The notes under the pieces were generated by a model. That model was not told where the DNA came from. It ran no database searches and saw only the letters and a program-made list of their open reading frames with translations. Position numbers and translations under genes: made by a program. From positions 1 to 64,000 of the IMG/VR virus record IMGVR_UViG_3300043540_000321: a stretch of 64,000 bases of DNA. The stretch is one strand, 5' to 3'. Below are positions 1 through 64,000 of the stretch, piece by piece (the stretch's first letter is position 1; each line of letters opens with the position of its first letter). The stretch comes from a virus.

Positions 1-67
1 CTAAGGTCGTCCCAAGGATCTGGAACTTGAGGTGTGGATGTCATAAGTTTCGAGTTGTAGCGAACTA

Positions 68-99
68 AAGAAAGCAGGGCTCCGGAGCCCTGCTTTCTT
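68..99. terminator. Perfect 32-bp palindrome, probable intrinsic terminator
   Basis: AAGAAAGCAGGGCTCC|GGAGCCCTGCTTTCTT, GC core with A/T-rich arms, downstream of minus-strand genes. Confidence 0.6.
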
Positions 100-198
100 A
101 TTTGGTCATCGTTTCAGGATGGGGGGTCTTTGAGGACTTGGCACAACTAAACCGGGAGTAGCCGGCTGATAGGAGTAGCAAAACCACTACTATCCAAA

Positions 199-927
199 TT
201 AGCCAAACTCTTTTCTTCTTTCCGCCTCTTCTAAAGGGGCGGTTGACCCGACCTTTAGTTTTGATAGTTCTTCGTGAGCTTGTGCGTGTCCACGCGCAGC
301 CCCCGATAGAGTACGAACGTAAATCTCGTTTGCTACTGCCCTCTCTACATCGTCTCCGAGTCCTCGGATGGCCCCCTTGAGTCCAGAATTAGCCTTAAAA
401 AGATTAGACCTCAAAGCTTTCAAATTAGCCTCTAGGACTTCTGCTTCCTCTATGGCTACGATTTCTCGAGTCTCGTCTACAAAACGATGAAGAACAATAG
501 AGGTTCTGGGCTCAACAACTTCAGCCGTAATGACCTCAGTTGACTTTTGAGACTTAATAGCGTCGAGTTCTTGATTCGCTACGCCATGCTTCTTCCAAAC
601 AAGTTCTGCATAGGTTTGGACATCCATTAAAGGAGCCTTGTCACTGCCTAACTTGCCGGTGTAATTAAGGAGTTCTTGCATTTGCTCGAACCCCCATTGA
701 GTGAAGGTGCCGTCAGGATTTTGTATGCGGTCGGGGCACCAGTAAAAAATCTCAACGAGAGTTTTCCTTTGTTGCTTTACCCAACTAGGAGAACGCTGAG
801 GGTTAAGGGAGCTGGCAGTCTTAGAGATAGAGTAAGACCCCATATCACCAGACTCAGGTTCAGAATTAGCCTTCCGCTGCAAAGGGCGATTAATATTTTC
901 TGCATCAGCAGAGGATGACTTAGACAA
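199..927 (-). CDS. Hypothetical protein (coiled-coil, possible DNA-binding)
   Basis: 242-aa ORF with TTG start, co-oriented with parA and its partner; no recognisable catalytic motif. Confidence 0.6.
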   Translation of the reverse strand: MSKSSSADAENINRPLQRKANSEPESGDMGSYSISKTASSLNPQRSPSWVKQQRKTLVEIFYWCPDRIQNPDGTFTQWGFEQMQELLNYTGKLGSDKAPLMDVQTYAELVWKKHGVANQELDAIKSQKSTEVITAEVVEPRTSIVLHRFVDETREIVAIEEAEVLEANLKALRSNLFKANSGLKGAIRGLGDDVERAVANEIYVRTLSGAARGHAQAHEELSKLKVGSTAPLEEAERRKEFG

Positions 928-1234: not shown

Positions 1235-2788
1235 TCAGCGTCCGATCAACGTGAACGCTGAGTCCACACCGCACTTTAGAACAGCCTCTCGGACGTAATC
1301 ATGCACCTCGAATTGGGAATTTCTATCGGTAATCAGATGGACGAAGGTGTCCGTTGGATTGATAAACCGCTGTAAGTAGTACTCAATGCTGTTCTCAATG
1401 CCCGCGGGGGACCCGAAGTTCATCCGCATGGCGTCTGCAATCTTAGATTTCTGAGCGGCCGTCGGGTTGTTCAACAGGTCCTCGATAGCCCTATTCATCG
1501 CGTGTTGATACTCTTCCGACTCCAGGTCGAGGCCCTCAATCTTAAAGTCATCAATTAAGCCTCGGATCAGTCTCAGAGGCGGTTTGTAGGACATCGATAG
1601 AAGAACATGACTGGAGGCATGAGTAGCCCGCCCAACTATTCTTGGTGAGTATCCAGGCTGGCGACGAATGGTGTACGTCCAGCCCACATGGAAAGGGTCT
1701 AGCTGAGGACCAACGAACTGAATGTTCTGTTGCCCGCATACAGCCAATAGCACGCCGCCGTCCTTCATCCTTGGGTAGAGTATCTCAGCGAGGACCTTGT
1801 AGTCCACTAGAGACGCTTTCCCTAAGGGCATTTCAGCGAAGCAAAGGTCTACAGAATCCAGGGGCAGGTCAGAGAGCAGTTTAGACCACTTACCAGAGAA
1901 GGTTTCTACCCGCTGGTGGGCTACAGAGACTACTTCTGCTTCGAGGATTTCTTCCTCTTTTCTCCTTCGCTCATCCTCCCTTGGACGATTGAGCGCCTCC
2001 TTCACAGTGAGTCCTTTCAAGAGGTGCGGAGCGACCTCTAGCTGCCGTCTGACAGGGAGTTTCGCTAGTCGGCTGAGTTCTGTTCTATCCTCGGCCAGGT
2101 CCGTGCTGATTAAGAGTTGCTGAACTTCTTTCGGGAGACCCGCCGCCTCCATCTGGTGCTGGCGGTACCTCTCCACAATGTCACCGGCTCGCTTGCGGTC
2201 TACCTTCTCGCCTACCTCAGCCAGGGCCAGTATTTCATGCACGGCTCCGCTTGGAACGTCACCCCTGGAGAGGTTATACAAAGTAGACAGAGGAAGCTTT
2301 TCAAGCTCCTCTGGAGTATACTTCTCAGCCATTTGGGCCACGTTGACCCAGTTGTTCGCCGTATCGTAGCTGATGTGACCCTCAAACTCTTCCTGTACCC
2401 ACTTCATATAGGTTCGATTCGGAAGTTTCTCTCGCACTCGGAGGAACCATCTCCCTATCCGAATAATGCCGACAAGGGTCCGCTTGAATTCCTGTTTGAT
2501 CTCGCGAGCAGCCTCTAATGCAAGGGTCTGCGTTGCTTTATCTTTGATTTCAGAGTAGTTGAACCGTAGGGGTTCGAGCTCAGCGATCGCACTGTCTGGA
2601 GCGACAACCAGGGCGTTCTTGATACTTCTCCGGCGACCACTCGTTGTAGCCGTCTCTTTGCCTGGGGTGCTTGAGGTTACTGCCTTCTTTGTAGTGTTCG
2701 AGGTTGCCGCTTTTGCTGTCGTCTTAGTGCTTGCTTTTGCTGTCGTCTTAGTCTGCTTTTCAGCAGGTCGAGTGCGTCTTGTCGCCAT
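1235..2788 (-). CDS. DUF3102-like DNA-binding protein fused to a degenerate DNA methyltransferase-like domain; probable ParA partner
   Basis: K/T/A-rich N-tail; IIRIGRWFLRVREKL..YMKWVQEEF..ISYDTANNWVNVA (DUF3102-like); SVDLCFAEMPL..MKDGGVLLAVCG resembles a beta-class MTase with EMPL in place of DPPY. Confidence 0.6.
   Translation of the reverse strand: MATRRTRPAEKQTKTTAKASTKTTAKAATSNTTKKAVTSSTPGKETATTSGRRRSIKNALVVAPDSAIAELEPLRFNYSEIKDKATQTLALEAAREIKQEFKRTLVGIIRIGRWFLRVREKLPNRTYMKWVQEEFEGHISYDTANNWVNVAQMAEKYTPEELEKLPLSTLYNLSRGDVPSGAVHEILALAEVGEKVDRKRAGDIVERYRQHQMEAAGLPKEVQQLLISTDLAEDRTELSRLAKLPVRRQLEVAPHLLKGLTVKEALNRPREDERRRKEEEILEAEVVSVAHQRVETFSGKWSKLLSDLPLDSVDLCFAEMPLGKASLVDYKVLAEILYPRMKDGGVLLAVCGQQNIQFVGPQLDPFHVGWTYTIRRQPGYSPRIVGRATHASSHVLLSMSYKPPLRLIRGLIDDFKIEGLDLESEEYQHAMNRAIEDLLNNPTAAQKSKIADAMRMNFGSPAGIENSIEYYLQRFINPTDTFVHLITDRNSQFEVHDYVREAVLKCGVDSAFTLIGR
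2709..2752. repeat. 20-bp direct repeat encoding TKTTAKA twice
   Basis: GCTTTTGCTGTCGTCTTAGT at 2709 and 2733. Confidence 0.7.
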
Positions 2789-2845: not shown

Positions 2846-3622
2846 TCACCGGTGCAAATTCTCGACCCGATCGAGGTATTCATTGACCAAATTAACATAA
2901 GCGACCGAAACTGGCGCACTTCGGTACCGAAAAATGGACTGTCCACGGGCTGTTGCATTCACCTGACGACGGCTGTAAGGGATGACGGTTTCAAACACCA
3001 GGTCGCCCAGAGCCTCGCGCACATCGGTAATAGATGCCTGTGTAGACGGGCTGTTCGGTCGCTCTACCAAGGTGAGCACAATGCCAAGTACCTGTCCGAT
3101 CGGGTAACTCAACATCTCTCTTAAAGAAGAGAGGCGATCGAGCAATGTGATCACTCCCTCCTCACTGAGGTAGCGCAGTTGGACAGGGACGAGCAGGTTT
3201 TGCGAAGCGACCAGGGCGTTGATGGGTAAGAGAGAAAGAGAAGCTGGAGAGTCGATGAGGATATAGTCGAACTGTTCAAATAAAGGCTCCAAAGCCTGTT
3301 TCAGGACTACTTCCTTGCTTGGATGACCCAGGAGTAGGGCATCGAAGAAGATAAGGTCGGGACTGGCAAAGATAATCGATAGGTTTTCAGTAGGCGTTTG
3401 CTGGACAGCCTCCACGATCGGCATCCCTCGAAACACGTCCATCAGTGTCGGCGTGAGTTGAAGGCGACTGTACCCCATCGCTAACGCCGCGTTCGCCTGA
3501 AAGTCGCAGTCAACAATTAAGGTTCGATAGCCCTTCATTGCTATTCCCTGGCCCAAGGCGATACAGGTAGTAGTCTTACCGACGCCACCTTTAGCGTTGA
3601 CGATCGCAGTTATGTGAGGCAT
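2846..3622 (-). CDS. parA: ParA/Soj-family partition ATPase
   Basis: Deviant Walker A KGGVGKTT, LIVDCDFQAN, YILIDSP; no N-terminal HTH. Confidence 0.95.
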   Translation of the reverse strand: MPHITAIVNAKGGVGKTTTCIALGQGIAMKGYRTLIVDCDFQANAALAMGYSRLQLTPTLMDVFRGMPIVEAVQQTPTENLSIIFASPDLIFFDALLLGHPSKEVVLKQALEPLFEQFDYILIDSPASLSLLPINALVASQNLLVPVQLRYLSEEGVITLLDRLSSLREMLSYPIGQVLGIVLTLVERPNSPSTQASITDVREALGDLVFETVIPYSRRQVNATARGQSIFRYRSAPVSVAYVNLVNEYLDRVENLHR

Positions 3623-3682
3623 ATTGGTTCAGACCAAGCGTAAGGGGCTAGACCCCCTTTGCTGCCTGGGTTTTTGTGATAC

Positions 3683-4120
3683 TGTTAGTGAAATGTTAGT
3701 GGATTTGTTAGTCCACTAACATTCAAATGTTAGTGGACTAACATCTGACCACGATTTACTAACATTTCACAAACACCCGACTAACATCTGACCACGATTT
3801 ACTAACAGTTGAATGTTATCGAACTGATGTACTATGTTAGGCGTTAGTAAATTTGCCAAAAAGCGTTAGTCGTGGAAATGTTAGTACGAACATTTGGATG
3901 TTAGTCCACTAACATTTCCACTAACATCGGCTGAAACCCCTGAAACTTCGTGACTAACATGTTAGTTGGATGTTAGTCCGAGAGCCCAAAATCCACTAAC
4001 ATTTGCCTGAAAGTTCGCACTAACATTTTTACTAACACCCCCAACTAACACGAGAATTGGGCGTTTGAGCCTCCCAGCCTTAAAAATCTAAAGATAAACT
4101 GGGGAAAAGTGGATGTTAGT
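3683..4120. repeat. Array of about 21 ACTAACA/TGTTAGT motifs; candidate centromere (parS-like), iteron or transfer locus
   Basis: Exact 7-mers in both orientations; inverted pairs (A)TGTTAGT-NN-ACTAACA(T) at 3706, 3727 and 3898; 29-bp direct repeat at 3736 and 3779; between divergent parA and the membrane operon. Confidence 0.85.
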
Positions 4121-4204
4121 TCTGCAAAATTCTTTCTTAAGAATAAAAATTACATTGATTAAGTCCATGAGCGAAGGAAAATGTAGAAGTTTTTTCTTTA
4201 TTCA

Positions 4205-4942
4205 ATGAGAGATTTCAAGAGGTCGCTACCTCAGAAAATTTTTATCCTCGTCATTACGGGGTCTACTGCCTTCATATTTACTGCTGCAATCACCGGTCTC
4301 TGGTCGGCGGCAAAAGACGCTGGCGCTATTAAGCCGGGCTTTAGGTTCGGCACCTTCGCCACGATCGTGGGCGTGTCCGGACTTGCCTCTCTGGTGACGT
4401 ATGGCGGTCTGATGCTTGACGAGGAGATGCGTCGGCGGGCAGCGATCGCAGAGGAAGAAGAGGAGCTGGCGAGAGAGCGGGAGAGGATGCGTCAATACTC
4501 TTATCCGCAACCGTATCCTCCGTCCTACCCGCCTCAACCTCCCCTCTACCCTCAGCCTGACCCTGCTCTAGCGGAGGCACTCAACAATTTACAGTTGGCC
4601 GATGTTGATTCCTTGTCTTATACACCGCCTCAGCGTCAGCCTCAGCCTCAGCCCCAACTTCGTCCTCCTTCGAGTAAAGAACCAACGGTGGGTCTCGACC
4701 TTGACTTTAGTCACCTTCGAGAACAACCTCCTTCTAGACCACCTGGGATAAGAAGAACCTCTGGTCTGGTTCCTCCTCGATTTGCAGATGAGGCACCACA
4801 AGTTGAGCCTCCCCAGTCAGGTACAACTTCGGAAACCGAGGAGGATTTTTGGGCAGACTCGCCTCTAGGAGTTCAACCTCAGGAGACAAACCCTCCTAAA
4901 ACCGAATCGAAGGCGAGCTATTTGGATAACTTGGGTCTCTAG
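4205..4942 (+). CDS. Membrane protein with Pro/Gln-rich cytoplasmic tail
   Basis: Two N-terminal hydrophobic segments, then YPQPYPP/QPQP repeats; first gene of a tightly packed operon. Confidence 0.75.
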   Translation: MRDFKRSLPQKIFILVITGSTAFIFTAAITGLWSAAKDAGAIKPGFRFGTFATIVGVSGLASLVTYGGLMLDEEMRRRAAIAEEEEELARERERMRQYSYPQPYPPSYPPQPPLYPQPDPALAEALNNLQLADVDSLSYTPPQRQPQPQPQLRPPSSKEPTVGLDLDFSHLREQPPSRPPGIRRTSGLVPPRFADEAPQVEPPQSGTTSETEEDFWADSPLGVQPQETNPPKTESKASYLDNLGL

Positions 4943-4956
4943 TCAAGGAGGAAACT

Positions 4957-5673
4957 ATGGAGCTGGAATCAGAGTTCCAAAAACCCGGTGGGTACAGAGC
5001 AAAACTAAAGTTCACGGGTAACGTGGACGAGTTTCACGCGGTCTATACCTCAAACAACTACTATATCCACACAACTTCCTTGCCGCCGGTTCAGTTCTTC
5101 CAAACCATGCACCAGCCGATTCAGATTGCTCCGGCAGCTCCGCATACGGTGAACAACAATAACTTGTTGTTGCCGGGACAGGAGTATGCTTACACACTGC
5201 CATCGGCACCACTCCCTGCGTTACCTCCAGCTCCTACCCAGCCTTCCAACTACTGGTCTCAGACAGTAGACACATCGGCGCACACTCTAAACGGTCTACA
5301 GAGAACGTTGCAGGGTATCAACAGTCCCTCTAATCAAGGAGGTGGGTTTTCGAAATTCATTCGGGGACTGTTCAGCAAGAAGGAGAAAGACCCGCTCGCT
5401 CAATACCAGGCGATGTTGGCACAAGTCAATGGCCAGAAGGCAGGAGGGGGTTTTAATCATAAGATGCTGATCTACGCTGTTGACGCACTACTCGTGATAA
5501 TGGCTCTCTATGTTGTGTTCAGTCCTTCGGGACAGAACCAGATTAAAAATTATCTGAGGCCGCTTACTAACCTTGTTAACCCTTCCTCTGTGGAGGGGAG
5601 CAAGTCGCAGGTAAGACCTCAGGTAAAACCTCAGGTAAAACCTGGTCCTATGGAAGATCCCAACAAAGTGTAA
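4957..5673 (+). CDS. Hypothetical membrane protein
   Basis: AGGAGG RBS; single TM segment LIYAVDALLVIMALYVVF; QVKP tandem repeat near the C-terminus. Confidence 0.75.
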   Translation: MELESEFQKPGGYRAKLKFTGNVDEFHAVYTSNNYYIHTTSLPPVQFFQTMHQPIQIAPAAPHTVNNNNLLLPGQEYAYTLPSAPLPALPPAPTQPSNYWSQTVDTSAHTLNGLQRTLQGINSPSNQGGGFSKFIRGLFSKKEKDPLAQYQAMLAQVNGQKAGGGFNHKMLIYAVDALLVIMALYVVFSPSGQNQIKNYLRPLTNLVNPSSVEGSKSQVRPQVKPQVKPGPMEDPNKV

Positions 5674-5677
5674 GTCA

Positions 5678-6334
5678 ATGACTCAATTCGACAGAGAGGA
5701 CTTTGAGTCCCTTCTCCAAAAGACGATTAACGCAACTGTAGTCCATGAGGGTGAAGAAGTGACAACGGGCTATGAGAATTTCCCGCGCCCGCCCCACCCC
5801 TCATCACCTCATAAGGCAGAAGCTGGGAAGTCCGGCTATACTCAATCTCGGCACACTCAGTCTCATCCGTCTTCGCGTCCGACTCCCCAACCAGCCCGAC
5901 CGCAGCCTTCGACATCTCCGAGGGGGTCTCAATCCACTGGTTTTCCAAAACAAGGTGGGTTAGGATTAGAGAATAGCCAGTCTCAACCTGAGAGGAGGGA
6001 CTCTCCATCTGAGAAAACCCCTTTTTGGGGTCGTTTCCAGAGAGGTCAGGGTAGTCCTTCTGAGAAAGGAGAGGCGTCTAAACCCGCATCTGCGAAAAAG
6101 AGCTGGAAAACTTTAATAAAGAAATGGCAGTCTCATTTAGGGGACTTGAGTGTAACCTTCCTGGCTTGTCATTTCATTGCCCACCTATTCCACCTGTTTT
6201 TGAGACCGGGGCCTTACGGCTACCTTCTCGATTTCAGACTCTTGATAGTGGTTGCTGCGATAGGAGGAATTCTTCAGCAAAAACAGGTGGTCACGATAGC
6301 GATCTGCCTCCTACTTAGTTTTCTGATGTTTTAA
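5678..6334 (+). CDS. Membrane protein with disordered N-terminus and C-terminal TM helices
   Basis: 218 aa with about 3 hydrophobic segments at the C-terminus; 4-5 nt gaps to neighbours. Confidence 0.75.
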   Translation: MTQFDREDFESLLQKTINATVVHEGEEVTTGYENFPRPPHPSSPHKAEAGKSGYTQSRHTQSHPSSRPTPQPARPQPSTSPRGSQSTGFPKQGGLGLENSQSQPERRDSPSEKTPFWGRFQRGQGSPSEKGEASKPASAKKSWKTLIKKWQSHLGDLSVTFLACHFIAHLFHLFLRPGPYGYLLDFRLLIVVAAIGGILQQKQVVTIAICLLLSFLMF

Positions 6335-6339
6335 CGAGT

Positions 6340-8511
6340 ATGCAACTAACTGGCCTCCCGAATAAGGAGGTAATCAACCACCAAATTGAGCGAATCAAGA
6401 AGCTCAGCATTAATAACCGGGAGGTGTTGCGCGACCTCGGCACCATAATAATCCCGAATTTTGAGAAGTGGTTACCATTCATCGATGAGATGAAATTAGG
6501 CATATCTGCTCGAGAGGTCAAACAACTTCTGGCTACGCAGTTTTGTCTTCGTGTCTTGATAGACACTCAAGGAAAACCACCCGACGATCCCGCCGTCAAA
6601 GAAGGTCTAAAGCTATGGATAGACTGGGTGAACCACTGGCAAGTTGGGGATTCCAAAGAGCAAATCCTAAGAGACGCGCACACTATTATGCAGGCCGCAG
6701 CACCTACTTCTAACTCGACTTCCTTCGCTAACTCACCTCGAACTGCCCCCACAGCCAGTTCGGGACCGAGCGAGCCGTCAGCATCATCTCAGTTGACTCG
6801 TGCGAATCCGACGGCGGTAGTCCGACGGCCAGTTGAGACTCAAGTTATCAAGACTATCGGTCGGAACACTCTTCTTAAAGGAGAGATGGTCGAGCAGGCC
6901 TACAGTTCGATTGGAAAGATCGAGTTCCTTCCAGAAGACTCATCTGACCGGGGGCTTAGGCATGACCGCCTACGTTTTAAGAAGCCGTTAACGGTCACTT
7001 TTGCCGCCTGTAAAAAGGTGCTGCAGGAGGTGATCAGTCACGCCGGAGTGGACCCTGAAACGGAGATACTCTTCAGGGCGTTGGCGAACAACCAGTTCGA
7101 CCTGCACATTCCCAGGCCGCCGGAGCAGTGGAAGATTCTCAGCTACACGGATTTCTTACACGCAGGATGGGATAAGTCGAAGTCGACTTTGGGCTCCTAT
7201 CTCTCTCGGAGATTTTTTGTTCCGCCGCATGAGCCTCCTCGAGTCCCGGTCGGGGTGAACCTGGATATGGAAGAGGTGGCTATCCGGTTTAGTACGGGTG
7301 TGTTTATCACTGGGAAACCAAACCAGGGTAAATCCGAGCTGGTGAAATCCATCCTGATGACCCTGGCGATCGGATTCCAACCGAACTATCTATGGTGGGT
7401 AGGCGCGGACTGGAAAGACGGGGCCTTACTCGATAAGTTCTCTTGCCTTCCTAGCTGTGTGCAACCGATCGCCAAGTCGGAAAAGGAAGCCCAGGAGCTC
7501 ATGAAGTGGTTGAAGGCTCAGTTCAAAAGGAGGGAGCGACTTCTCGACCCCTATAAGAAATATGGTGTTGAGAACATTTGTCACTACAACAAACTGCCGG
7601 ATGTTGAACCCATGCCCTGGCTGCTCCTCTTCTGGGAAGAGCTGGCTCGAGGTCGTGAAGTCTTAGGAGAGACTCAAGACGAGTTTCTCCGTTCGGTCTG
7701 TCAATACTGGCGGTATATCGGGATTATTCCCGTCGCCACCACCCAGTATCCCTCTCAGAATATATCTGGCTCTGGACCCGGTATGCGTTCTGCCTATGGG
7801 ACAAAGGTTGCCTTCAAAAATGATGAGGGAGCTAAACTCCTATTTGGTGAAAGTAGCATTCACGCTAAGTACGCTCAGGCTCTCAACGGACCTGGGGACT
7901 GTATAGTCGTAGGTGACGATAGCTTCGATCGTTGCCAGACATTCTTTGTCGAGCCAGAAATCTTGCTGCAGATTATCGATGCGATATCTCAGCGTGATGC
8001 TGACTATTCCCTACCAGAGCTCGCTCTGATTGGACCAGAAGAAGAGGAACGAGCGGTGGCTTCGGACCCTTCTTCGCCAGCCTCCTCGGAATCGGAACCG
8101 GATCGGGAGGAAGTGCTGGCTATGAGTACGAGTTACCAGGAAGAGACTATTACGGAAACGGACGAGAGCGATCTCTCGGACCTGCCCAATAATATGCTCG
8201 ACATGGTACGAAGGTTTCAGGATTACAACAGATTGATGCAACTGGATGCCGACCTGAAGAAGGAAGGTAAGCCAGGCGTCACTCAAAACCATAAATTGGC
8301 TATGCTGGTCGGAGACTATCTCTATCCAAAAGGAGACCCCCGGCGTGGAGTGTACCAGGGATGGTTATCTGTTGATGAATTTAAGAACCTTGACAAATCC
8401 GATCCGAGATTAAAGGTGTCTAAGGGAGGTCGTTACTTAGATAACGCGAAGCTCCGCTTGGAGGAGATTATCCAGAAAGTCTCCGGGGTAAACCAGCCTG
8501 TGGCTTGCTAA
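6340..8511 (+). CDS. FtsK/SpoIIIE-family ATPase (DNA translocase-like)
   Basis: Walker A ITGKPNQGKS, ADWKDG, Walker B-like LLLFWEELA, WRYIGIIPVATTQYPS, GPGDCIV. Confidence 0.85.
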   Translation: MQLTGLPNKEVINHQIERIKKLSINNREVLRDLGTIIIPNFEKWLPFIDEMKLGISAREVKQLLATQFCLRVLIDTQGKPPDDPAVKEGLKLWIDWVNHWQVGDSKEQILRDAHTIMQAAAPTSNSTSFANSPRTAPTASSGPSEPSASSQLTRANPTAVVRRPVETQVIKTIGRNTLLKGEMVEQAYSSIGKIEFLPEDSSDRGLRHDRLRFKKPLTVTFAACKKVLQEVISHAGVDPETEILFRALANNQFDLHIPRPPEQWKILSYTDFLHAGWDKSKSTLGSYLSRRFFVPPHEPPRVPVGVNLDMEEVAIRFSTGVFITGKPNQGKSELVKSILMTLAIGFQPNYLWWVGADWKDGALLDKFSCLPSCVQPIAKSEKEAQELMKWLKAQFKRRERLLDPYKKYGVENICHYNKLPDVEPMPWLLLFWEELARGREVLGETQDEFLRSVCQYWRYIGIIPVATTQYPSQNISGSGPGMRSAYGTKVAFKNDEGAKLLFGESSIHAKYAQALNGPGDCIVVGDDSFDRCQTFFVEPEILLQIIDAISQRDADYSLPELALIGPEEEERAVASDPSSPASSESEPDREEVLAMSTSYQEETITETDESDLSDLPNNMLDMVRRFQDYNRLMQLDADLKKEGKPGVTQNHKLAMLVGDYLYPKGDPRRGVYQGWLSVDEFKNLDKSDPRLKVSKGGRYLDNAKLRLEEIIQKVSGVNQPVAC

Positions 8512-8514
8512 CCT

Positions 8515-9384: not shown

Positions 9385-9427
9385 TCAATGAAGCGCACCG
9401 TTAAGTGTTCACAAAAGGGAAACTAAG

Positions 9428-10105: not shown

Positions 10106-10106
10106 G

Positions 10107-10724: not shown

Positions 10725-10748
10725 CTCAGTAGCTAGTTTTTATTAAAA

Positions 10749-11231: not shown

Positions 11232-11233
11232 AG

Positions 11234-12010: not shown

Positions 12011-12012
12011 CC

Positions 12013-14044: not shown

Positions 14045-14055
14045 ATGGCTTTTGA
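12774..14055 (+). pseudogene. iscB: IscB RNA-guided endonuclease with a +1 frameshift at about 13280
   Basis: PLMP (LTPCKPSMARKLL), RuvC-I LDPGSK, Arg-rich bridge helix, ELVRFD, HNH CAYC..EHIHP..GG.N..NL..AC..CN, RuvC-III HWLDAAC; an extra T breaks ENP|EISG. Confidence 0.9.
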
Positions 14056-15935: not shown

Positions 15936-15995
15936 CGATCGGGCGCGAAATTAATAAACTTTTTAATAAATCACGACCCGGTTCTGGAGCTAAAG

Positions 15996-25078: not shown

Positions 25079-25119
25079 AGTCAACTTCCTGCTAGTTTTG
25101 TCCACTATATTCAGAAAGA

Positions 25120-57500: not shown

Positions 57501-60500
57501 AGGCGACGCAGATATCGATCTAGATTGTCCATCGGGTAATCAGCGCGGGCCGGAATATTATTAATAAATCTAAGAACTGGGTCTGCTTTTGCCCTCGCAG
57601 TCCCGACAGACTCAGAGACGGGTCTGGCAAAAGAGAGGATGCCGGACAGCCAAGAGGCTGCGCGAGTAACCCCACCTACGATGCGGGGTGCGATCGCCTG
57701 GCGTAGACGTGAGGCTGCTCCACGTCCCAATTGAAGGAGAGAAGACATACCTTCCAACCCCCACAGACCCAGGTCGAGAGCGCGGTCAGTTAATGAGTGA
57801 GGGATGGAGAAGGCAGGTAGGTTAATTCTGAACCCTTTAAGCTTCTCCAGAAACGCCAGCTCAGGCAAACTCGGTAGTGGTATGGACCGACTCAGCCTTC
57901 TTCCAGCTCGAAGAGTTGCTGCCAGCAGATTTCGACGAAGTTGTTGGAGAGGGACTGCTAGACGACTGACGGCTCCAGAGAAGGGTTGGATTCTTGCATT
58001 AATAAAACGAGTGGCGTCGTCATGCCAGTCTCCAATAGTATTTCGAACAGTGGAGATGTCCTTCTGTAACTCTTCAAAGGGATTGAGATTTGAGACCGAT
58101 CTGTAGGCTCGAAGAGTTGCCGCCCCGCCGTAAATATGACTCAGGAGGGACAGGTCTACCGGGGGTGGTTGGCGAGCGATCGCCTGTGTCGTCACCAAAA
58201 CGTTGAAAAGAGCCTGCCGACGTTCAAGAGCCATCATCAGCGTACGACTAACGCGAGTTCTATGCAGCGCGAAGTCAGACCAGACTCGCCCACCTGTGCC
58301 GTGGAAATACTTCTTGTAGGCGAGCTTCTCAGATTCGCTGTCCTCAAATCCGATATAGTCTCCGTAGACCAGTTGTTTCTCAATCATCGGGTTGATCCGC
58401 ATGGCGGACTGAAGCGCTTCGACCTGTCGCTTCTTCATCACCATCGTGATGTTGCCCGACATAAAAGGAGACTGCCCGCCGAGAGAAGACTCCGTTCCTT
58501 CGTTAAAACTGAAGTTGCTATAAACGCTCTGAGGCAAGAAGAAACCCTTGACCATTTGAATCGGAATCGGGTCTCTCACCATGCCGAAGGTCTGGTCTTG
58601 AATCAGCGGCCCTGAGATATTTTCAGTAAAGGCTCTCACCGGAGCCGTCAGTATCCGCCCCAGAAAACTGAAGGGGGCCGCCAGGAGATTACCGAGCTGA
58701 CGAACTGGACGCTCAAGTCCCAGCGGTCTGAACACAGAGGCAACTGTCTTAACCGGGAATGCCAGTAGATTCCCCAATCCCTCGACAAGGTTTGTTTCGA
58801 CGGAACGGATAGACCCGGACTTTTGCTTCAGAGCATCAAATGCGACCAGTCCTCCAACAGCCGCCGCCATCGCTAACAAAGGACTGGCCCCAATTCCCAT
58901 TGCTACCTCGGCCAACCCGACGGCAGTCGCCCAGGAAAAACTACTCGATACAAACTGTTCGCCCGCCTTCTGCCTCAGATAAGTCGACTGGGTAGCTCCA
59001 CCCATCATCACACCGGCTGCTTCGATCACCTCATAGGCTGAGCGACCGTTGGCTGTCCACCAGGCGACTCCCGATGCTAACCCTTTGCCAGCCTTTAATG
59101 TCGTCGTGACAGCACCTTCACTCCAGGGACGCTGAACATAGTCGCCCATCTGTCTCCGGACCTCGGACGAGAGCCCCACTTCTGCTCTTGGAGTCCGTTT
59201 GACCGCTCGGATGGTATTTTCAGTGTCTAACCGAGCAATTCGTCCGTAGGCAGACCGCTCTGCTCTCAGGTCATACGTCCCAACGATCGGGCGTTGCAGT
59301 TTGAGAAGAAGGTGTTGAAAGGCTTCGTTCTGCTCCAACGCGACGTTCAATTTCAACGTCGTCTTGAAGGAGTCTATGCCAACAGCCGCCTCTTCATCCA
59401 ATCGTGTCAGCACATCTGTAATGGCTGACTGAGAGAACCCTTCCATCTCTTGTGTGAACAGGTCGATAGCCTGGTTAAGATGCTGGTCACCCGCCCCGAT
59501 GATCGATTGGAAAAGGGTAGTGCCTGGGACAACTTCAACTCGCATCGACTTGTCGATGTGCTTCTGAATGTCCTCAACAAATTGTTGCTTGAACAACTCC
59601 TTCTGGACCTCATCAAGCGGACCCTCGGAGGCTAACTTCACGAGGGAGGCTAACCGCTTGGAGTAGTTCTCTGTGAAAATCTGGTTCAGACCGCTGTGTA
59701 AGCTTCGGTAAGCTTCCGTAATACCGACCGTGATACTCAGCGGAGTTGCTCCGGTGCGGGTAGCTGTCTCCTCAATATCCAAAGGCAACCGGTATAAACC
59801 ACCCAGCGGGTTGAGCTGATCGACCTGGAATGCTGCGGGTCGCCCACTGGGTAGTCTACCTGAAGTGAAAGCGTACCGGGTCAGAGGAGAAACGGGTCTG
59901 CCTCGATTGAGTCGACTCTTGTGAGTCAGCTCCTTCAATTCGTTGTAGGTCTGGGACGCGGCCAGTCCTCCGATCACGCCCACTCCGGCGTAGGCTGCCG
60001 ACGCCAACAGGACAAGTTGGATCGGTATCGTGAGGTACGAGTACCCTTTCAGGGAACTAATGTCGTACCCAATCCGGAGGGCACTGAACCCTTGATTAAC
60101 CGCCCGATGCTTCCACTCCGTTGTGCCGTACCAGGACATGATACTCAGCTCTGGGTCAAGAGCTTTCATTGCTCCTGACTCTAGGTTGTTCTGCTGAATG
60201 GTGAACGTGACATTTTTCAAGAAGCCCATCGGGCGGTATCCGGTGGGAGGTAGTCTGTACCCGGGTATTGCCGAATGTCCCATCAGCCCGAAAGTCATAC
60301 CCTCTTTCATCAGGTCAAACATCAGTTCAGAAGGACGCTGGGCGGCCAGATGTTGCATCAGGAAGTGCCGATACTTAACCGCCCGGATCAGTCCAGTCGA
60401 CTGGCGAGCGGCTTCCAGGTCGTAGCCGGTCAAGTCTCGAATCTCCATGTGCTTCTGCCGAGGCGTAGCTCCACGAACGAGGGCGAGAGCTTCGGCTACA

Positions 60501-63500
60501 GACTGGGGTCTCCGATTAGCGAAGACGTCGATAGTGCGTTTTAATAAATCTTCTGAGACGCGCCCGGCAAGCATGTCATAGCCAGACGCGCTAATGTCAG
60601 TGAAGGCTGAAGCGTATTGAATATATGTGCTGGTGCGCTTGGGTTTGAAGCTCGCTCCAAAAGGGCCGATGGAATTAATAAAGGGGTCTTCCGGGTTGGT
60701 ATAGAAACCCAACGCCTTTGAAAGGTCAATCGTCCCGAAACTCAGAGTTTTAACAAAGCGATTGACTAGACCAATTAGACCGCGAGGGGCGTCTGCCTGC
60801 CGAACTCCGTGCTCCGTCGGTTCGAGTTTGTCTTTCTCGGGCTCAACCCCAGCCAGGAGTCGAATAGTAGGACCAACGAGCGGCACTTTATAGAGAGCCC
60901 GCAATCTATCACTGGAGAATGAGTTAGCGATCGTGAACGCAGCCGCCTTGACGCCGAAAAGAACGGTTCCGGCGATCGCAATACGCGCACTCATCGAACG
61001 GAACTTACCGCCGGGCAGTCTCGCCATTTCCTCTGTCATGTAAAGAGGAGCCTTCTCTTCAAGTCCGCGATACTCTGGACGGGCGTATCTCTCGACAGCC
61101 TCCTGCCATAGAGTCTCGCCGGATGCCTGCGCCAAAAGTCGGCGCGAAGGAACCCACAATTGTCGAGACCCCTCAGCAGAGATTCTCTCCATCCTTTCCA
61201 GGACAGCTCTGATTTCCTGTTCGGCGTGCTCGTTCCTGGCGACTGCCTTGGGAATCCAGCCTTGCACGAGAGATTGTGTATCCACTCCTTTAACTCGGTG
61301 GAACTCAGCCGCCAGGTCCTTAGAACTGGCAAAGACACCTGTTTTATCTAAGAGGAACCCAGTGAGTAGACCGGCTCCTAAAGTTGCTTGGACCTGAACA
61401 AGCGGGTCTTCAAAGTCCTTACCGACATAGTCCCCCTGCGGGTCTGACATCAACCTCGACATCATCAACGCCAAGTAGTACGGCGCGAGCTTTCTAACAA
61501 ACCTGGGTGTTTTGATTTCGGGTATTTTCTCCGTCGCCTCTGTCTTGAATACTGAAAGGGCGCTGGTGACGGTGGAGTGAACCACCGAAGGAGCCAGGCT
61601 GTAAACAGACCGGATCGCCTGGTTAGAGAGCATAGCCGCTCCTCCAATCACAGCTCTTAGAGCTCGTGTGTTCTCCTCTAGGTCAGTGAGGTGCCGGACA
61701 ATAGCTGAGCTGGATTCGTGGGTTCGAAGTAACCTTTGATAGCCCCGAGCGAACCGTTCGGCCCCCATGCTTAGAAGTGTCGTGAGGCCGACGAACTCCA
61801 TACCTTTTTCCATCATGGAGTCTTTGTCGTAGACCAGACCGCTACCAAAAGTGAGGGTGGAGATTCCTCCTCGGATCACACTCATCAACAACTGTCGCCC
61901 CCCGTACTTCCGCTGGAAGTAATAGGGATCGTTGTCGTCAGTCTTCCGGAGTTGAATGGCAAATGGAAGGATAGGCGTAAAACCCAGCCCCAGAGCGTGC
62001 ATGGACTGAAGTCCAATAGAGAGCTGAGCTTTCTTTTTCTGAGTGTCAAAACGAACAACTGCTGGTATCTGAAAGAAGGGAGTGGTAATTTGGGAAACGA
62101 CTGAATAGACTCGATGCCCGCTGCTATCTGGACGAAGATACTGGCGAGCCAAGAACAAACCCATTGCAGAGTTCACATAGTCTCCCATCGATCGAGCCCG
62201 CTCTAGACCTCGAACGGAGAGATACTCGAAGCGAGAGGACAGCATCGCGTCAGTGCTGCCCACTTGAAAACTGCTTTCCCGGTTGTAGGCCAGGTTCAAC
62301 AGATAGGCGGTGCCCATTGCAACGCCTTTGGCGGCAATACCGGCTACGAATGCTCCAACGAGAGCAGCCTGCATATTAAACCGGAGAGCTGTGCGACGCA
62401 TCATCGTCGAAGAGAAGCTCTCCTGCAATGTGCGATAAACCGCCCGGATCTGAGAAGACTTCTCTCGACTGGTAATCACCCGGGTGCTTTCAAGGATGGG
62501 TCCCTCAGCGGCATCTGCAATCTCGCGCTGCCGAGCGGTCAGGTCTTTCTGAAACCCTCTTAGGCTATCCAGCCGATCGATGAACCCACCGGGGCGGTCG
62601 CCCACGTCCACAAAAGAAGGAAGCAGTAACCCGGTGGTCAGTCCAGCCCCCAGTTGAACACCGGCTGTCATCCAGCGGGGCAACACTCCGCTGAACTGAA
62701 ACTTAGCGACCGTTCCATCATCGGTATCGAGAGCTTGCCGCGCTCTGATCTGAGTGATCAGGTTGGCTCCCAGTGGTTTTAATAAAAGGTCGTCCAGAAA
62801 CTGGTCCGCGACGATGATCATCCCAACCGTCGTCAGAGTCCGTCGTACCTGACCGACTCTTCGACCCGCCGGAGTGTCAACCGTTTTATAGGGATTCTCA
62901 GAGGCCGCAAAGGTTACATCGAGAGCGTGAAACGGGCTCTGTTCTAAGAGCTGTCGCTGTTCAACAAGGGTATTTCGATACTCGTGAAAGCGAGAGTCCT
63001 GGAGCAGACCCTCGATCTCAGCCGTCCGACTTTGATACGTTTGGGCGGAGTGCTCGTAGAGTTGAACTAGAGACTCCTCAGCGGTACTGGCCAGAGGAGG
63101 GACTGAGGCCACTGGGGTTTGAACCATCCCTTGAAGCAGACTTCGCTCTATCCGAGCGATCTGCTGTTCATTGCGCCAGGCCTTGACCACCTTCTTGACG
63201 TTCTCAGCCGGACTGGATATGAACTTACCCACGCGCTGATAGAAGTACTCAGTCCATTTGACCGCATCTTCAAAAGACATCATGTCTCGGACGGTCATGT
63301 GGTGCCTGGGGTCAAAGTCTTCCAGACCTAAGACTCTTCGGAGAGGAGGTGTCCAATAGGCGATGTTCGCGGGCAGGAGCGCAGCGACCTCATCGTAACT
63401 GCGTGCGATCTGCCGAACCCTCTCCGTACCCACATTTCTGAAAACAGGAGTGTAAACATTTGGGTTGTCCGGTCGCTGTTGAAACTCGATAAGAGGCATG

Positions 63501-64000
63501 AGACCAACGGTCTCTTCCACCCGCCTGACAGCAGCCTGATACATCCGATGGTGAGAGACCCCGACATCGTAAGGATTGAACAGCTCTAGGAACTGACTGG
63601 TCAGAGACCCAAAGCGGGCAGTGTCGAACCGCCGCATCTGTGTCATCCAGGAAAAGAGCCCTTCTTCAGATAGCTTGATGCTGGTCAGACGACCTTCGTG
63701 CGTCTTAGCTACCCGTGATAGGTCGATCTTGCGAACGTCGTTCTCAATGATGGCCGCATAGAGTTTATCAGCGAAGTTATCGTGGCGAATTTCTGGGTCT
63801 TTGATTACCTCCGAGATAGCTCCGCCGATCGCGTCTCCAAAAGTCAACGATTGAAGACGAGGTAGAGCCTTGGTCAGCTCTGACCCCATCCAATTTCGAG
63901 CGGTAATATCTTGGGGCAGGGTGATCAGTAGATTGAAGTAGTCCGCCTCGAACGCCGCCTTAAGGTACTGTACTGGAAGGTTCACCCCGACATAGAAGGC
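51512..64000 (-). CDS. Giant (>4157 aa, 5' end outside window) tape-measure/ejection-like protein with zincin, M23 peptidase and lysozyme domains
   Basis: Frame stays open to base 64000; G/A-rich amphipathic segments; FHEMSH; M23-like VPSPVEGKV..LH..V..GQ..G..G.TG.ST.VHVHLE; muramidase AFLDMIGYSEG..AAGRYQF..TW..DFSPASQD. Confidence 0.88.
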   Translation of the reverse strand, partial: AFYVGVNLPVQYLKAAFEADYFNLLITLPQDITARNWMGSELTKALPRLQSLTFGDAIGGAISEVIKDPEIRHDNFADKLYAAIIENDVRKIDLSRVAKTHEGRLTSIKLSEEGLFSWMTQMRRFDTARFGSLTSQFLELFNPYDVGVSHHRMYQAAVRRVEETVGLMPLIEFQQRPDNPNVYTPVFRNVGTERVRQIARSYDEVAALLPANIAYWTPPLRRVLGLEDFDPRHHMTVRDMMSFEDAVKWTEYFYQRVGKFISSPAENVKKVVKAWRNEQQIARIERSLLQGMVQTPVASVPPLASTAEESLVQLYEHSAQTYQSRTAEIEGLLQDSRFHEYRNTLVEQRQLLEQSPFHALDVTFAASENPYKTVDTPAGRRVGQVRRTLTTVGMIIVADQFLDDLLLKPLGANLITQIRARQALDTDDGTVAKFQFSGVLPRWMTAGVQLGAGLTTGLLLPSFVDVGDRPGGFIDRLDSLRGFQKDLTARQREIADAAEGPILESTRVITSREKSSQIRAVYRTLQESFSSTMMRRTALRFNMQAALVGAFVAGIAAKGVAMGTAYLLNLAYNRESSFQVGSTDAMLSSRFEYLSVRGLERARSMGDYVNSAMGLFLARQYLRPDSSGHRVYSVVSQITTPFFQIPAVVRFDTQKKKAQLSIGLQSMHALGLGFTPILPFAIQLRKTDDNDPYYFQRKYGGRQLLMSVIRGGISTLTFGSGLVYDKDSMMEKGMEFVGLTTLLSMGAERFARGYQRLLRTHESSSAIVRHLTDLEENTRALRAVIGGAAMLSNQAIRSVYSLAPSVVHSTVTSALSVFKTEATEKIPEIKTPRFVRKLAPYYLALMMSRLMSDPQGDYVGKDFEDPLVQVQATLGAGLLTGFLLDKTGVFASSKDLAAEFHRVKGVDTQSLVQGWIPKAVARNEHAEQEIRAVLERMERISAEGSRQLWVPSRRLLAQASGETLWQEAVERYARPEYRGLEEKAPLYMTEEMARLPGGKFRSMSARIAIAGTVLFGVKAAAFTIANSFSSDRLRALYKVPLVGPTIRLLAGVEPEKDKLEPTEHGVRQADAPRGLIGLVNRFVKTLSFGTIDLSKALGFYTNPEDPFINSIGPFGASFKPKRTSTYIQYASAFTDISASGYDMLAGRVSEDLLKRTIDVFANRRPQSVAEALALVRGATPRQKHMEIRDLTGYDLEAARQSTGLIRAVKYRHFLMQHLAAQRPSELMFDLMKEGMTFGLMGHSAIPGYRLPPTGYRPMGFLKNVTFTIQQNNLESGAMKALDPELSIMSWYGTTEWKHRAVNQGFSALRIGYDISSLKGYSYLTIPIQLVLLASAAYAGVGVIGGLAASQTYNELKELTHKSRLNRGRPVSPLTRYAFTSGRLPSGRPAAFQVDQLNPLGGLYRLPLDIEETATRTGATPLSITVGITEAYRSLHSGLNQIFTENYSKRLASLVKLASEGPLDEVQKELFKQQFVEDIQKHIDKSMRVEVVPGTTLFQSIIGAGDQHLNQAIDLFTQEMEGFSQSAITDVLTRLDEEAAVGIDSFKTTLKLNVALEQNEAFQHLLLKLQRPIVGTYDLRAERSAYGRIARLDTENTIRAVKRTPRAEVGLSSEVRRQMGDYVQRPWSEGAVTTTLKAGKGLASGVAWWTANGRSAYEVIEAAGVMMGGATQSTYLRQKAGEQFVSSSFSWATAVGLAEVAMGIGASPLLAMAAAVGGLVAFDALKQKSGSIRSVETNLVEGLGNLLAFPVKTVASVFRPLGLERPVRQLGNLLAAPFSFLGRILTAPVRAFTENISGPLIQDQTFGMVRDPIPIQMVKGFFLPQSVYSNFSFNEGTESSLGGQSPFMSGNITMVMKKRQVEALQSAMRINPMIEKQLVYGDYIGFEDSESEKLAYKKYFHGTGGRVWSDFALHRTRVSRTLMMALERRQALFNVLVTTQAIARQPPPVDLSLLSHIYGGAATLRAYRSVSNLNPFEELQKDISTVRNTIGDWHDDATRFINARIQPFSGAVSRLAVPLQQLRRNLLAATLRAGRRLSRSIPLPSLPELAFLEKLKGFRINLPAFSIPHSLTDRALDLGLWGLEGMSSLLQLGRGAASRLRQAIAPRIVGGVTRAASWLSGILSFARPVSESVGTARAKADPVLRFINNIPARADYPMDNLDRYLRRLIGLSQEMMEPLKKVLSFGMRRGLDRGIGTLMTSLPKVPIGPILLSRLELLIAQQTDYRLSSLGRGSSYKEYRETYREVGMSLGGYTAGAAALSLVERPLPALIASALGSFVGGWAGENLALGDYRRKDKNPVLNYLKQSALVGSLSTLTQLPKLLSIARAQGLRAAAMRGAANFALSSAFGLFTGPTTQLSLTGMTMDSYDWVQRNQRMIRSSVKKTLSFFQALPDLFSLLFRGRVSSTISQAARESVVSLKEEFQTGLGLNRTALSGTPVSFDGSPFQIEGMYNLQEGSVTLSKASESVLGRMRAGKFVRPSAVTRAIFDAFHEMSHAIEFQRTLPKLNIDDLQVIAYETGTETNRLQDIVERVSKSSAMRTLDEFKFGQDILQEMLRDEISANVRALGAFSATHRDQFEGLTNTLDRETRIDDIAHRYSILMETLPPQEGLRPPVRYRGRPLIGGMIEDIQTRSGETLRGLLTEQQRFRSLGSIAENAFVALDFMLGIHSVHKFETTVQTIQQAKIRGSFNRLQAQRELAEARDEQMGVMFGSIAGNFAAFFSGRWWTGLAAGLTVGVLSRFGFFGLSSWISAQDLKDLDNGNYVYNPMQSSSVYIRLNRSFEKEATVGQFLTGRVRQALRPLVSKTLRYLAEAGPKITRVVSQLTAIAASALPVLTGVISSGLSAIASGTQFLLKGWDWNIRLRPDAVAQVHRAFDATRRFAHGLFQGWDWNIRLRPEAIRQMRQAYQTSRLMLQRGAQYLSESWSWVSNLHLFQGGTGFIKKLFEGFSWNVQFRQEALNQIGRAFQTSRSFVGSLFEGWDWKVRFRQDAIDQIGRGFRASGQFVKGLFEGWDWSIKFRSGAVSQIRRAFNVSQRFIGGLLSGASDWAGSMLNVSRHLFDGFSWNIKFRSEAVDQIRRAFQFLNRPTGLLGLTRRLFDGFSWNIKFRQEAIDQIRQTFSMARDFGRSLFEGFSWNIKFRQEALDQIRGAYETAKTIPGRVSTWALDHMEGIAQKFRLLPSHLIKGFGWLKRVLTRANHFIGQAVEKGLDQVVLRMSRLAPKMSEYVLTHGYREGILSAIAPVVDLTTLGGGALKALRLNKTSSLTDVEEAYAQMGGAKGSLVGSILGVFSGGVLGDISGSILGQVGGAEEAVRVARMRYEAKDYGAVPILEDILEPGLKQAALAKEAGQAIGFRVSTLTERYLAAANVRVLSGSASLMDRIATSASRTYAGALTRASEAAQARFLRVFGKSAPEVGELAAKFAKPAGFLARGAGHVLRFAGPIIDIWRIGSGVQKAQTARSEVEYKVALRRTTGGIGSLGGGIIGGSLAGPIAAIAGSLIGDYTFSKIGEKLGSEAFARRVGAKTVVRNQLLGGIGGAVLGGLAAAGLVAAGIVSAPILLLAGVGIGAGLLIGSLAGSFSSFLGTKDLRHTKREGLSYMPVHEASMGLTNPEIQKIIRAQPSRDSWIRKKEPPASTGLMGLLRSVGDGFKNLWWNAEKFARDALTKLNNVAKGLMNTTAKVREGLSNALVDLKDQVSSAFTDSVDGVGRLTPYTVWSLGGRRYGEGIARSAEELRPHWEGTGGYVRYRMDHGKLKSYLDNGQRVVDIQLNRGSSTNVPVPSPVEGKVIFAGFVGELGMIKIQDASGAVTRVLHNKTIEVKAGQTVRFGQRLGIQGSTGETSTAVHVHLETSEALLQRYMKALVSGDFGSRKGNVGATNISAARRAFLDMIGYSEGADYNVMFTGRRFSNFADHPRTVMSGGGIRSDAAGRYQFMSFTWDDARKALGLKDFSPASQDKAALWLIQQQGALADIDAGRINVAMRKLRSVWASFPDAPYGQPTRRASELLQYYWRAFSRYAKPTQPSLGQAAQKANENQPKRPEKTTRLKAAAQTVDRHLLALAANPTVPPVATAAKVVQFTRDKVKAAQQRLNELKRQAVAIRPNTQYQYKTQDGIIKEAKVRATVEQRDNKTVIRVATETSYLKSWESATGLPKQSDYITAVG
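54551..55435 (-). repeat. Eight copies of a W-rich peptide repeat in the giant protein
   Basis: G(W/F)(D/S)W(N/K/S)(I/V)(R/K/Q)(L/F)R..A..Q...(F/Y) eight times, also visible at DNA level. Confidence 0.85.

Follow-up and report, generated by a model that had tools for sequence, protein, structure and literature searches.

Ma-LMM01, of the Microcystis group of contractile-tailed cyanophages, is lytic. The Microcoleus phages, My-WqHQDG among them, have been described as jumbo phages predicted to be lytic (bioRxiv 10.1101/2023.04.12.536658). Partition genes have been recorded in phages as well: the Microcystis siphovirus Mic1 (92.6 kb) carries ParA, ParB and a parS-like palindrome, for which a plasmid-like prophage has been proposed (PMC7156551), and cryoconite viromes hold phages bearing ParA/ParB with or without an integrase (PMC4490671). 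In Streptomyces, pZL12 appears, in the passage of PMC3583192 that cites it, as a phage-plasmid with an FtsK-like transfer gene, and transfer of the TraB type requires only the motor and a clt locus of 7-9-bp repeats (PMC3583192). The present study deals with a window of 64,000 nucleotides (bases 1-64000 of a single IMG/VR virus contig of 195,211 bp, IMGVR_UViG_3300043540_000321, and about one third of that record), in which a ParA-type ATPase, a 517-amino-acid (aa) partner, a dense array of short repeats and an FtsK-centred membrane operon stand next to phage genes. We consider it highly probable that the contig represents one replicon, namely a contractile-tailed phage of about 195 kb that belongs to a temperate lineage and carries these genes as a conserved block.

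Essentially all open reading frames (ORFs) of the window were scanned against Pfam and PHROGs, and the family search covered the whole contig, which holds 227 ORFs, has a G+C (GC) content of 50%, is classed as 'linear' and is estimated by CheckV to be 100% complete. The HIP1 motif (GCGATCGC) occurs in 78 copies over the 195 kb where about 3 would be expected, and therefore the host is a cyanobacterium. The contig has in common with the Ma-LMM01/My-WqHQDG phages a contractile tail, a size in their range of 160-240 kb, giant virion proteins and homologues of the genes for capsid, sheath, terminase, portal, PolA, primase and RecA; the identity, however, amounts to only 22-40%, and a lytic or predicted lytic nature has been described for those phages. 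Between the contig's capsid protein and that of the Microcystis Ma-LMM01 group and of My-WqHQDG the identity is 30-34%, and 27 proteins, arranged in conserved modules, are common to the contig and My-WqHQDG. Judged by these protein comparisons, the contig's phage is distantly related to both. ParA, the partner and the FtsK-like gene were not found in the partial record of My-WqHQDG.

The other described systems resemble the contig in part. Mic1 differs in being a siphovirus with a canonical ParB and no FtsK module, whereas the contig's partner lacks a ParB_N domain. With the phage-plasmids P1 and N15 the contig shares the combination of a tailed phage and a ParA-type partition cassette, and it has no integrase; unlike them, it has no identified RepA-type initiator, plasmid origin, protelomerase or Cre-lox-type resolution system, its partner is not a ParB/SopB protein, and its relatives integrate. 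The pZL12/TraB-clt systems likewise join phage and plasmid functions and employ the FtsK-motor fold, and the contig has a 7-8-bp repeat array beside its motor gene, but the host phylum is another one, the contig's protein has no membrane helices, and the likeness is one of fold and not of close sequence. The first-pass annotation had not recognised such a combination as described for cyanobacteria; this overstated its novelty, given the published ParA/ParB plasmid prophage of Mic1 (PMC7156551) and, as far as its citation in PMC3583192 goes, pZL12 in Streptomyces.

The conserved block in a metagenomic contig and an integrated prophage

With the partner as query we found L041, a metagenomic contig of 137 kb that carries the sole full-length homologue in that search. 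Its genes run in the order small ORFs, FtsK_SpoIIIE, trypsin, a homologue of our ORF 115524-116219, a small ORF, M23, another small ORF, DUF4230 and Thy1, after which come ParA, the partner, five small ORFs, a 390-aa XisA/C-type protein whose C-terminal end is a typical tyrosine-recombinase motif, and then the collar fibre, PhoH and RecA. The capsid protein of L041 is 67% identical to that of our contig. The capsid protein as query brought up over 100 relatives with identities of 41-67%. Contigs of 180-220 kb carry many of these, and one lies in a chromosome of 5.53 Mb, that of Leptolyngbyaceae cyanobacterium JSC-12. Among 400 cyanobacterial species genomes, the capsid query matched JSC-12 only, and the partner query matched JSC-12 together with three weak partial hits. 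Two other searches gave no related locus: 24 kb of the window, compared by megablast with phage and plasmid collections, gave no match, and a search of viral contigs with the capsid protein and the FtsK-like protein as queries returned nothing.

Comparison of 280 kb of the JSC-12 chromosome (CM001633.1) with all 227 ORFs of the contig outlined an intact-looking prophage of about 206.5 kb, located at 607.3-813.9 kb, to which 75 of the 227 ORFs match at a mean identity of 40%, in the same order and as one syntenic block. The prophage has a GC content of 41% against 47% in its flanks, and it is poor in HIP1 (0-4 sites per 10 kb versus 8-17 in the host flanks), in contrast to our contig. There are zero N-run assembly gaps across the region examined. 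A gene for a metal ABC-transporter binding protein lies on one side of the prophage and the genes for the transporter ATPase and permease lie on the other; because the transporter genes are split in this way, the element must have been inserted in a chromosomal operon. At the left end are found, in order, an XisA/C-like tyrosine recombinase (607368-608507; 51% identical to that of L041), a small Xis-like gene, several ORFs, the partner (612925-614520), ParA (614517-615269), Thy1, DUF4230, M23, trypsin and the FtsK-like gene (621914-623695), and at the right end the collar fibre is the last prophage gene. Since this relative is integrated, the lineage is temperate and able to integrate. Our literature search found no published description of the JSC-12 prophage.

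The prophage and the contig agree in the gene order of the virion, replication and RNA-polymerase genes, and both have the ParA-partner pair, the FtsK-like module and the collar fibre. They differ in that the JSC-12 element is integrated, possesses the tyrosine recombinase, lacks the ACTAACA array and is lower in GC, and in that its ParA-partner pair lies downstream of the FtsK module and is co-oriented with it. In our contig, by a layout of its own, ParA and the partner lie upstream of the FtsK operon, diverge from it and adjoin the heptamer array. A trypsin homologue adjoins FtsK in L041, and JSC-12 has a homologue of that trypsin beside its own FtsK-like gene.

Related cassettes, with no capsid genes, are also carried by two cyanobacterial plasmids, Kovacikia minuta pA (NZ_CP083583.1, 730-762 kb) and Calothrix PCC 7716 p1. 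Both share with our window a 280-aa exported protein, and Kovacikia pA additionally has a trypsin-like protease and other genes; its homologue of the window's trypsin lies about 15 kb from its FtsK-like gene. Altogether, seven proteins of the Kovacikia region are common with the contig at 28-44% identity: the FtsK-like protein, ORF 115524, ORF 11168, the trypsin-like protease, a 1,704-aa FG-GAP protein and two neighbours of the tail sheath (87673-88563 and 88581-89660). On short metagenomic contigs, homologues of the FtsK-like gene are preceded by small ORFs and followed either by an M23 peptidase gene or by a homologue of ORF 115524. Taken on gene content and order, ParA, the partner and the FtsK envelope operon form a conserved accessory block.

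ParA, its partner, the heptamer array and the FtsK-like operon

The ParA gene (2846-3622, minus strand) encodes a Soj-type ATPase of 258 aa (AAA_31, E 6.5e-43; CbiA, 1e-17) that shares 35-38% identity with ParA proteins of plasmids and chromosomes and is conserved with L041 and JSC-12. Its motifs are intact, including the deviant Walker A motif KGGVGKTT at residues 11-18, the lysines of which are kept in both aligned proteins, and it has no N-terminal helix-turn-helix (HTH) domain. In its small size, in the missing HTH domain and in the deviant Walker A motif it corresponds to type Ib ParA. The partner of 517 aa (1235-2788, minus strand) follows it, and downstream of the partner lies a 242-aa ORF (199-927, minus strand) that matches no Pfam or PHROG family. 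The partner starts with a basic tail rich in Lys, Thr and Arg (about aa 1-82), which is probably disordered, continues with a helical region that resembles DUF3102 by a weak match, and ends in a highly conserved part that is N6/N4-methyltransferase-like, with the DPPY motif reading AEMPL in both aligned homologues. An Atlas search placed it near phage proteins of the composition 'ParB_N + N6_N4 methyltransferase' and 'MT-A70 + DUF3102', and with the scores obtained we take the methyltransferase likeness as a lead only; a PDB sequence search gave nothing usable. Full-length homologues follow ParA in L041 (34-37% identity) and in the JSC-12 prophage (38%). A ParB with a ParB_N/Srx domain, as in type Ia ParABS, was not found, PF02195 being unmatched in the contig, and instead of the small ribbon-helix-helix partner of type Ib there is this 517-aa protein with helical and methyltransferase-like domains, which falls in no known centromere-binding family.

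The gap of 582 bp between the divergent parA and FtsK operons (3623-4204) is occupied by an array of the heptamer ACTAACA(T) at 3683-4120, consisting of about 21 exact and further degenerate motifs of 7-8 bp in both orientations. Contig-wide, ACTAACA/TGTTAGT occurs 30 times, and 21 of these copies are inside the array, which is unique in the contig, no other heptamer there being clustered as strongly. The spacings are 9-13 or 21-22 bp, and the motifs are roughly helically phased. A promoter and terminator scan of 3400-4400 stayed at chance level. We propose the array as a candidate centromere or operator. From the gene order in three genomes and from the basic tail we infer how the parts may work together: the partner would bind the ACTAACA array, its N-terminal tail would stimulate ParA, and ParA would then spread non-integrated phage genomes over the host nucleoids, in such a way that daughter cells keep the phage.

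Several repeats and one further protein came up alongside. A 'GATGCAA' cluster of JSC-12, considered as a centromere-like array, was rejected, being a coding 12-nt tandem repeat; such a long 12-nt tandem repeat lies inside a 508-aa ORF at 646000-646490 of the chromosome. A non-coding run of nine CCCACTCTT units, a 9-bp array, is located at 676560-676680 in the early region of the same prophage and has no evident link to ParA. In our window, a 304-aa protein (15996-16910) has an N-terminus that, as read by eye and with no support from the family search, resembles a ribbon-helix-helix (CopG/ParG-like) motif, and it is weakly similar (35% over 52 aa) to an ORF downstream of the partner in L041.

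On the other side of the array, the FtsK-centred operon (4205-12534, plus strand) is a tight, co-oriented run of genes for single- or two-helix membrane proteins or exported proteins. It begins with three Pro/Gln-rich proteins of 245, 238 and 218 aa (4205-6334), the first two with one membrane helix and the third with two as predicted by the hydropathy scan, and none of them with a Pfam or PHROG match. The FtsK/SpoIIIE-like ATPase of 723 aa follows (6340-8511; PF01580, E 9.8e-9; phrog_1358, E 8e-23), and next to it a trypsin-like serine protease with an N-terminal hydrophobic segment (8515-9384; Trypsin_2, E 2.5e-12). The rest of the operon (9428-12534) encodes an acidic protein of 225 aa, a DUF4230 protein (10107-10724, by Pfam), a two-helix membrane protein of 160 aa, and exported proteins of 280 and 173 aa. 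The 280-aa protein is phrog_3000; a gene that neighbours the FtsK-like gene on Kovacikia plasmid pA encodes a protein 44% identical to it, and its counterpart on the Calothrix plasmid is 32% identical. PDB sequence searches with the 280-aa and 231-aa module proteins and with a 1,245-aa Calothrix neighbour yielded nothing usable.

The FtsK-like protein has a single motor and no predicted membrane helix: no hydrophobic segment exceeded the threshold, no N-terminal anchor was found, and the N-terminus was modelled by AlphaFold2 as a soluble helical bundle. The model, built with an alignment of 24 sequences, has a mean predicted local distance difference test (pLDDT) score of 76; its residues 580-723 are helical with a pLDDT below 65, and a winged helix that would read 8-bp repeats is not demonstrable there. 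In a Foldseek search, the best match was to the FtsK motor alpha and beta subdomains (6t8o, 2ius), with E 4e-19, about 415 columns and a template modelling score of 0.73-0.78 normalised by target, followed by TcpA (E 1e-13) and EccC (5e-13) of the EccC/EssC type. The contig's protein thus has the FtsK-family ATPase fold in common with TcpA of Clostridium perfringens pCW3 and with EssC/EccC, but one ATPase domain versus three in EssC, and FtsK is the better structural match, the roughly 415 columns including the alpha subdomain. Neither the three tandem ATPase domains nor the FHA/transmembrane N-terminus of a type VII EssC/EccC protein was found. Across 24 homologues neither the Walker A motif nor the catalytic Glu varies, with G325, G330, K331 and E434 invariant.

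Its sequence relatives are few. HMMER returned a single-domain family of 520-630 aa at 30-35% identity and then multi-domain EssC-like proteins; a word-based homologue search gave, besides the contig's own record, one weak JGI FtsK/SpoIIIE ATPase (E 3.5e-5, 25% query coverage); and the 400 cyanobacterial species genomes yielded nothing beyond weak matches to ORFs about 680-940 aa long, a length within the range of cellular FtsK. Among the Pfam and PHROGs matches of the window ORFs searched, we recognised neither a relaxase nor VirB4 nor any other family of type IV secretion. Most likely, judging from the model, the protein is a soluble DNA-motor ATPase of the hexameric type. The Pro-rich membrane proteins encoded upstream probably recruit it to the membrane, and it most likely acts together with the exported proteases and the wall-acting, envelope-modifying proteins.

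Virion, replication and mobile-element genes

The set of virion and packaging genes is full, comprising large terminase, portal, protease, major capsid protein, sheath, baseplate and fibre. Within the window, a tail fibre with a phage tail-collar domain is encoded at 17113-19245 on the minus strand (PF07484, E 2e-16) and is 38% identical, over its full length, to its counterparts in L041 and JSC-12. A giant protein of the virion region, 4,700 aa long, extends on the minus strand from 51512 to 65614 (51512-64000 in the window), has an M23 peptidase domain near its C-terminus and is 37% identical over 3,200 aa to a JSC-12 prophage protein. The large terminase (66237-68051) comes after its gene, and the rest of the contig holds the baseplate wedge (74713-75816), the tail sheath (84384-87185), the major head protein (94215-95612), the prohead protease (95656-97512) and a Mu-type portal (98866-100431), as well as a second giant protein of 3,395 aa outside the window.

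The replication and recombination module occupies 27286-49348 on the plus strand, from RecA to an HTH protein, and is syntenic with Microcoleus phage My-WqHQDG and with the JSC-12 prophage. By Pfam and PHROGs it consists of RecA (27286-28305), the exonuclease/N-terminal part of PolA (28624-29994), DUF3850, a Dam methylase, the C-terminal part of PolA (31644-32651), uracil-DNA glycosylase and an SNF2-type helicase, then a clamp-loader-like protein, a second helicase, a DnaG-like primase (44100-45278), a PD-(D/E)XK nuclease, an HU-domain protein and the HTH protein. Between the two PolA genes (28624-32651) lie DUF3850, the Dam methylase and small ORFs; PolA of the JSC-12 prophage is likewise in two parts, about 1 kb apart (chromosome 802138-805100), and the polymerase of My-WqHQDG is annotated as a single gene. 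On the minus strand, ahead of this module, are PhoH (24413-25105; PF02562, E 3.8e-59) and a 385-aa exonuclease of the Mre11/SbcD type (19738-20895; phrog_284, E 1.4e-39) with readable metallophosphoesterase motifs, for which a PDB sequence search gave nothing usable. The latter ORF had been considered as an XisA-like recombinase, which its assignment to phrog_284 rules out. Elsewhere in the contig, a class II ribonucleotide reductase (157103-160549) is split by an intein with a LAGLIDADG homing-endonuclease domain, and the sole tRNA (142075-142148, minus strand) is of the suppressor type, with anticodon TTA reading UAA; the window itself contains neither rRNA nor tRNA.

Most of what the first-pass annotation had named in the window was recovered: the tail fibre, PhoH, RecA, primase and polymerase (the last as two PolA genes) by Pfam and PHROGs, the giant protein as the 4,700-aa ORF with the M23 peptidase domain, and likewise parA, the repeat array and the FtsK-centred membrane operon. 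The terminase, portal and capsid genes, which it had proposed to look for, are all present at 66-100 kb of the contig. Its mazG, on the other hand, was not supported, as PF03819 has no match in the whole contig and the small ORFs near RecA match no MazG family in PHROGs.

Between the FtsK module and the tail fibre, where the relatives have ParA, the partner and the integrase, sits an OMEGA element of the IscB type (12516-14055, plus strand). It is composed of a HEARO RNA (12516-12753; RF02033, 153.8 bits), which we take to be the omega-RNA of IscB systems, followed by an RRXRR ORF (12735-13283; E 5e-69) and an HNH ORF (13216-14055; E 2.5e-11), both on the plus strand; these two are in different frames, and the element is possibly frameshifted. 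Four unassigned ORFs (13895-16910) come after it. An IS200/IS605 TnpA (22023-22439, minus strand) accompanies a TnpB (22464-23756, plus strand), and a second, longer TnpB of 571 aa is found at 185317-187032; with IscB counted, this one phage genome carries three OMEGA-type mobile elements.

Lifestyle of the phage and what it means

A site-specific recombinase and an attachment site, by which an integrating phage would be recognised, are present in L041 and JSC-12 and were not found within our contig. The first-pass annotation saw no integrase and no rRNA in the window, and this holds; moreover, neither a tyrosine nor a serine recombinase is encoded in the whole 195-kb contig, and tblastn with the integrases of L041 and JSC-12 detected no integrase or xis remnant in it. 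Both contig ends, as read from the sequence, truncate genes: on the left a minus-strand ORF (1..198) has its start at about base 43 and continues past the contig's edge, and this end is therefore not the end of the genome, and on the right (195140-195211) an ORF begins, MNTQDKIIQNKLGVLNLAKMLG..., which looks like the start of a transposase on the basis of its first 22 residues only. Were this so, the assembly was probably broken at a repeat. No terminal direct or inverted repeats were found on the contig, and exact 33-36-mers from both ends, scanned in viral and metagenome contigs, gave zero matches and no extension.

Episomal lysogeny as a phage-plasmid is a real possibility for this member of the lineage, because ParA lies beside a dense array and no integrase is seen in 195 kb, though we would put it somewhat below an even chance. 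The full explanation that we favour, in which the partition mechanism described above operates in a phage of this temperate lineage, is held tentatively, with confidence falling a little short of even. Several observations weigh against it. Relatives with the same ParA cassette carry an integrase and one of them is integrated, so that ParA is no marker of a plasmid; no plasmid-type Rep or origin was identified, with no match to a Rep family for the window ORFs that were searched against Pfam and PHROGs; and the nearest described relatives, My-WqHQDG as well as My-ElHQDG, have been predicted to be lytic and show no plasmid signatures (bioRxiv 10.1101/2023.04.12.536658). Besides, the contig is unclosed and ends inside genes, the partner is not a ParB, as PF02195 has no match anywhere in the contig, its AlphaFold2 model is poor (pLDDT 43), and no comparable array was found beside parA in L041 or JSC-12. 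Thus, of the proposal in the first-pass annotation that this is a cyanobacterial phage-plasmid, the large cyanophage is borne out by HIP1 and the virion set, and the plasmid state is not, as the relatives integrate and the contig is unclosed.

Integration is equally possible, although we lean against it: this phage would then be an integrating prophage like its relatives, with the block of ParA, partner, (xis,) int and attP having moved as a unit and the integrase lying just past the left end; the contig may even derive from an integrated copy whose flanks were not assembled. The integrase is positioned 2.8 kb downstream of the partner in L041 and 4.4 kb in JSC-12, while our contig stops, inside a gene, at 1.2 kb; the transposase-type ORF at the right end (22 residues only) would suggest a break at a repeat; and the lineage does integrate, as in JSC-12. 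Yet neither integrase nor xis remnant appears in the 195 kb searched, CheckV estimates completeness at 100%, and the stretch from the module to the collar fibre, where the relatives keep their integrase, is assembled here and occupied by the IscB element. An obligately lytic phage, in which ParA and the FtsK module act during infection and there is no prophage state, seems unlikely to us. Possible roles would be the positioning of replicating genomes or assembly sites, the handling of host DNA, or remodelling of the envelope for entry or exit, and such a phage would fit with the lytic nature of Ma-LMM01, with the predicted lytic nature of My-WqHQDG (bioRxiv 10.1101/2023.04.12.536658), with the phage's own replisome and class II ribonucleotide reductase, with the missing integrase, with the failure of the window ORFs searched to match a repressor family of the CI or Cro type, and with the PHROGs category 'host takeover', under which FtsK-like genes are filed. 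In JSC-12, however, the same block adjoins the integrase and attachment site of a prophage, and in L041 an integrase, which argues for a role tied to lysogeny, and a purely lytic role does not readily account for the dense centromere-like array next to parA. From general knowledge of phages, a position next to the integrase and attachment site would be typical of genes expressed in lysogeny; since the block takes this position in the relatives, it is no marker of a plasmid lifestyle.

The remaining alternative, that a phage and a fragment of a plasmid were joined in a chimera or by misassembly, had been named by the first-pass annotation as what would overturn its view of one replicon, and it is effectively refuted. 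In its favour one may count that the ParA and FtsK genes lie no more than 12.5 kb from a contig end and that homologues of the FtsK module reside on the Kovacikia and Calothrix plasmids. Nevertheless, the block and the phage genes are linked in two independent assemblies, one of them chromosome-level and without N-run gaps in the region examined, and GC is even across the junction of the ParA/FtsK block and the phage block in our contig. Because two independent relatives show ParA, partner and FtsK in linkage with these phage genes as well, the arrangement is conserved and not a product of misassembly; one replicon therefore stands, as a single contig and as a gene combination that recurs in L041 and JSC-12.

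By analogy with the TraB/Spd spreading in Streptomyces mycelium, one might further imagine that the FtsK motor, together with the membrane proteins and the exported proteases and wall enzymes, pumps the phage genome between cells through the septa of the filament, and that ParA would distribute the genome within each cell. We regard this scenario as a whole as very unlikely, although the virion-independent route of spread that the first-pass annotation suggested is a legitimate idea, given that transfer of the TraB/clt type requires no more than such a motor and a locus of 7-9-bp repeats (PMC3583192). If it were true, a temperate cyanophage would gain a virion-independent means of colonising a whole filament.

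The combination of genes described here is thus already partly known. What appears to be new is its link to an intact integrated prophage of about 206 kb in a cultured strain, JSC-12, and the conservation beside ParA of a partner that is not a ParB and is methyltransferase-like. For the interpretation of viral metagenomes, it follows that a ParA gene and the apparent lack of an integrase in an unclosed viral contig are weak evidence for a phage-plasmid. The FtsK-like cassette, for its part, recurs in phages and plasmids of cyanobacteria. More broadly, large Ma-LMM01-like cyanophages have mostly been treated as lytic agents of bloom control, and a sister lineage of contractile-tailed phages of about 200 kb is temperate. 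This raises the questions of how very large prophages persist in polyploid filamentous cyanobacteria, whether the ParA cassette serves an episomal phase, and what cargo the FtsK cassette handles.

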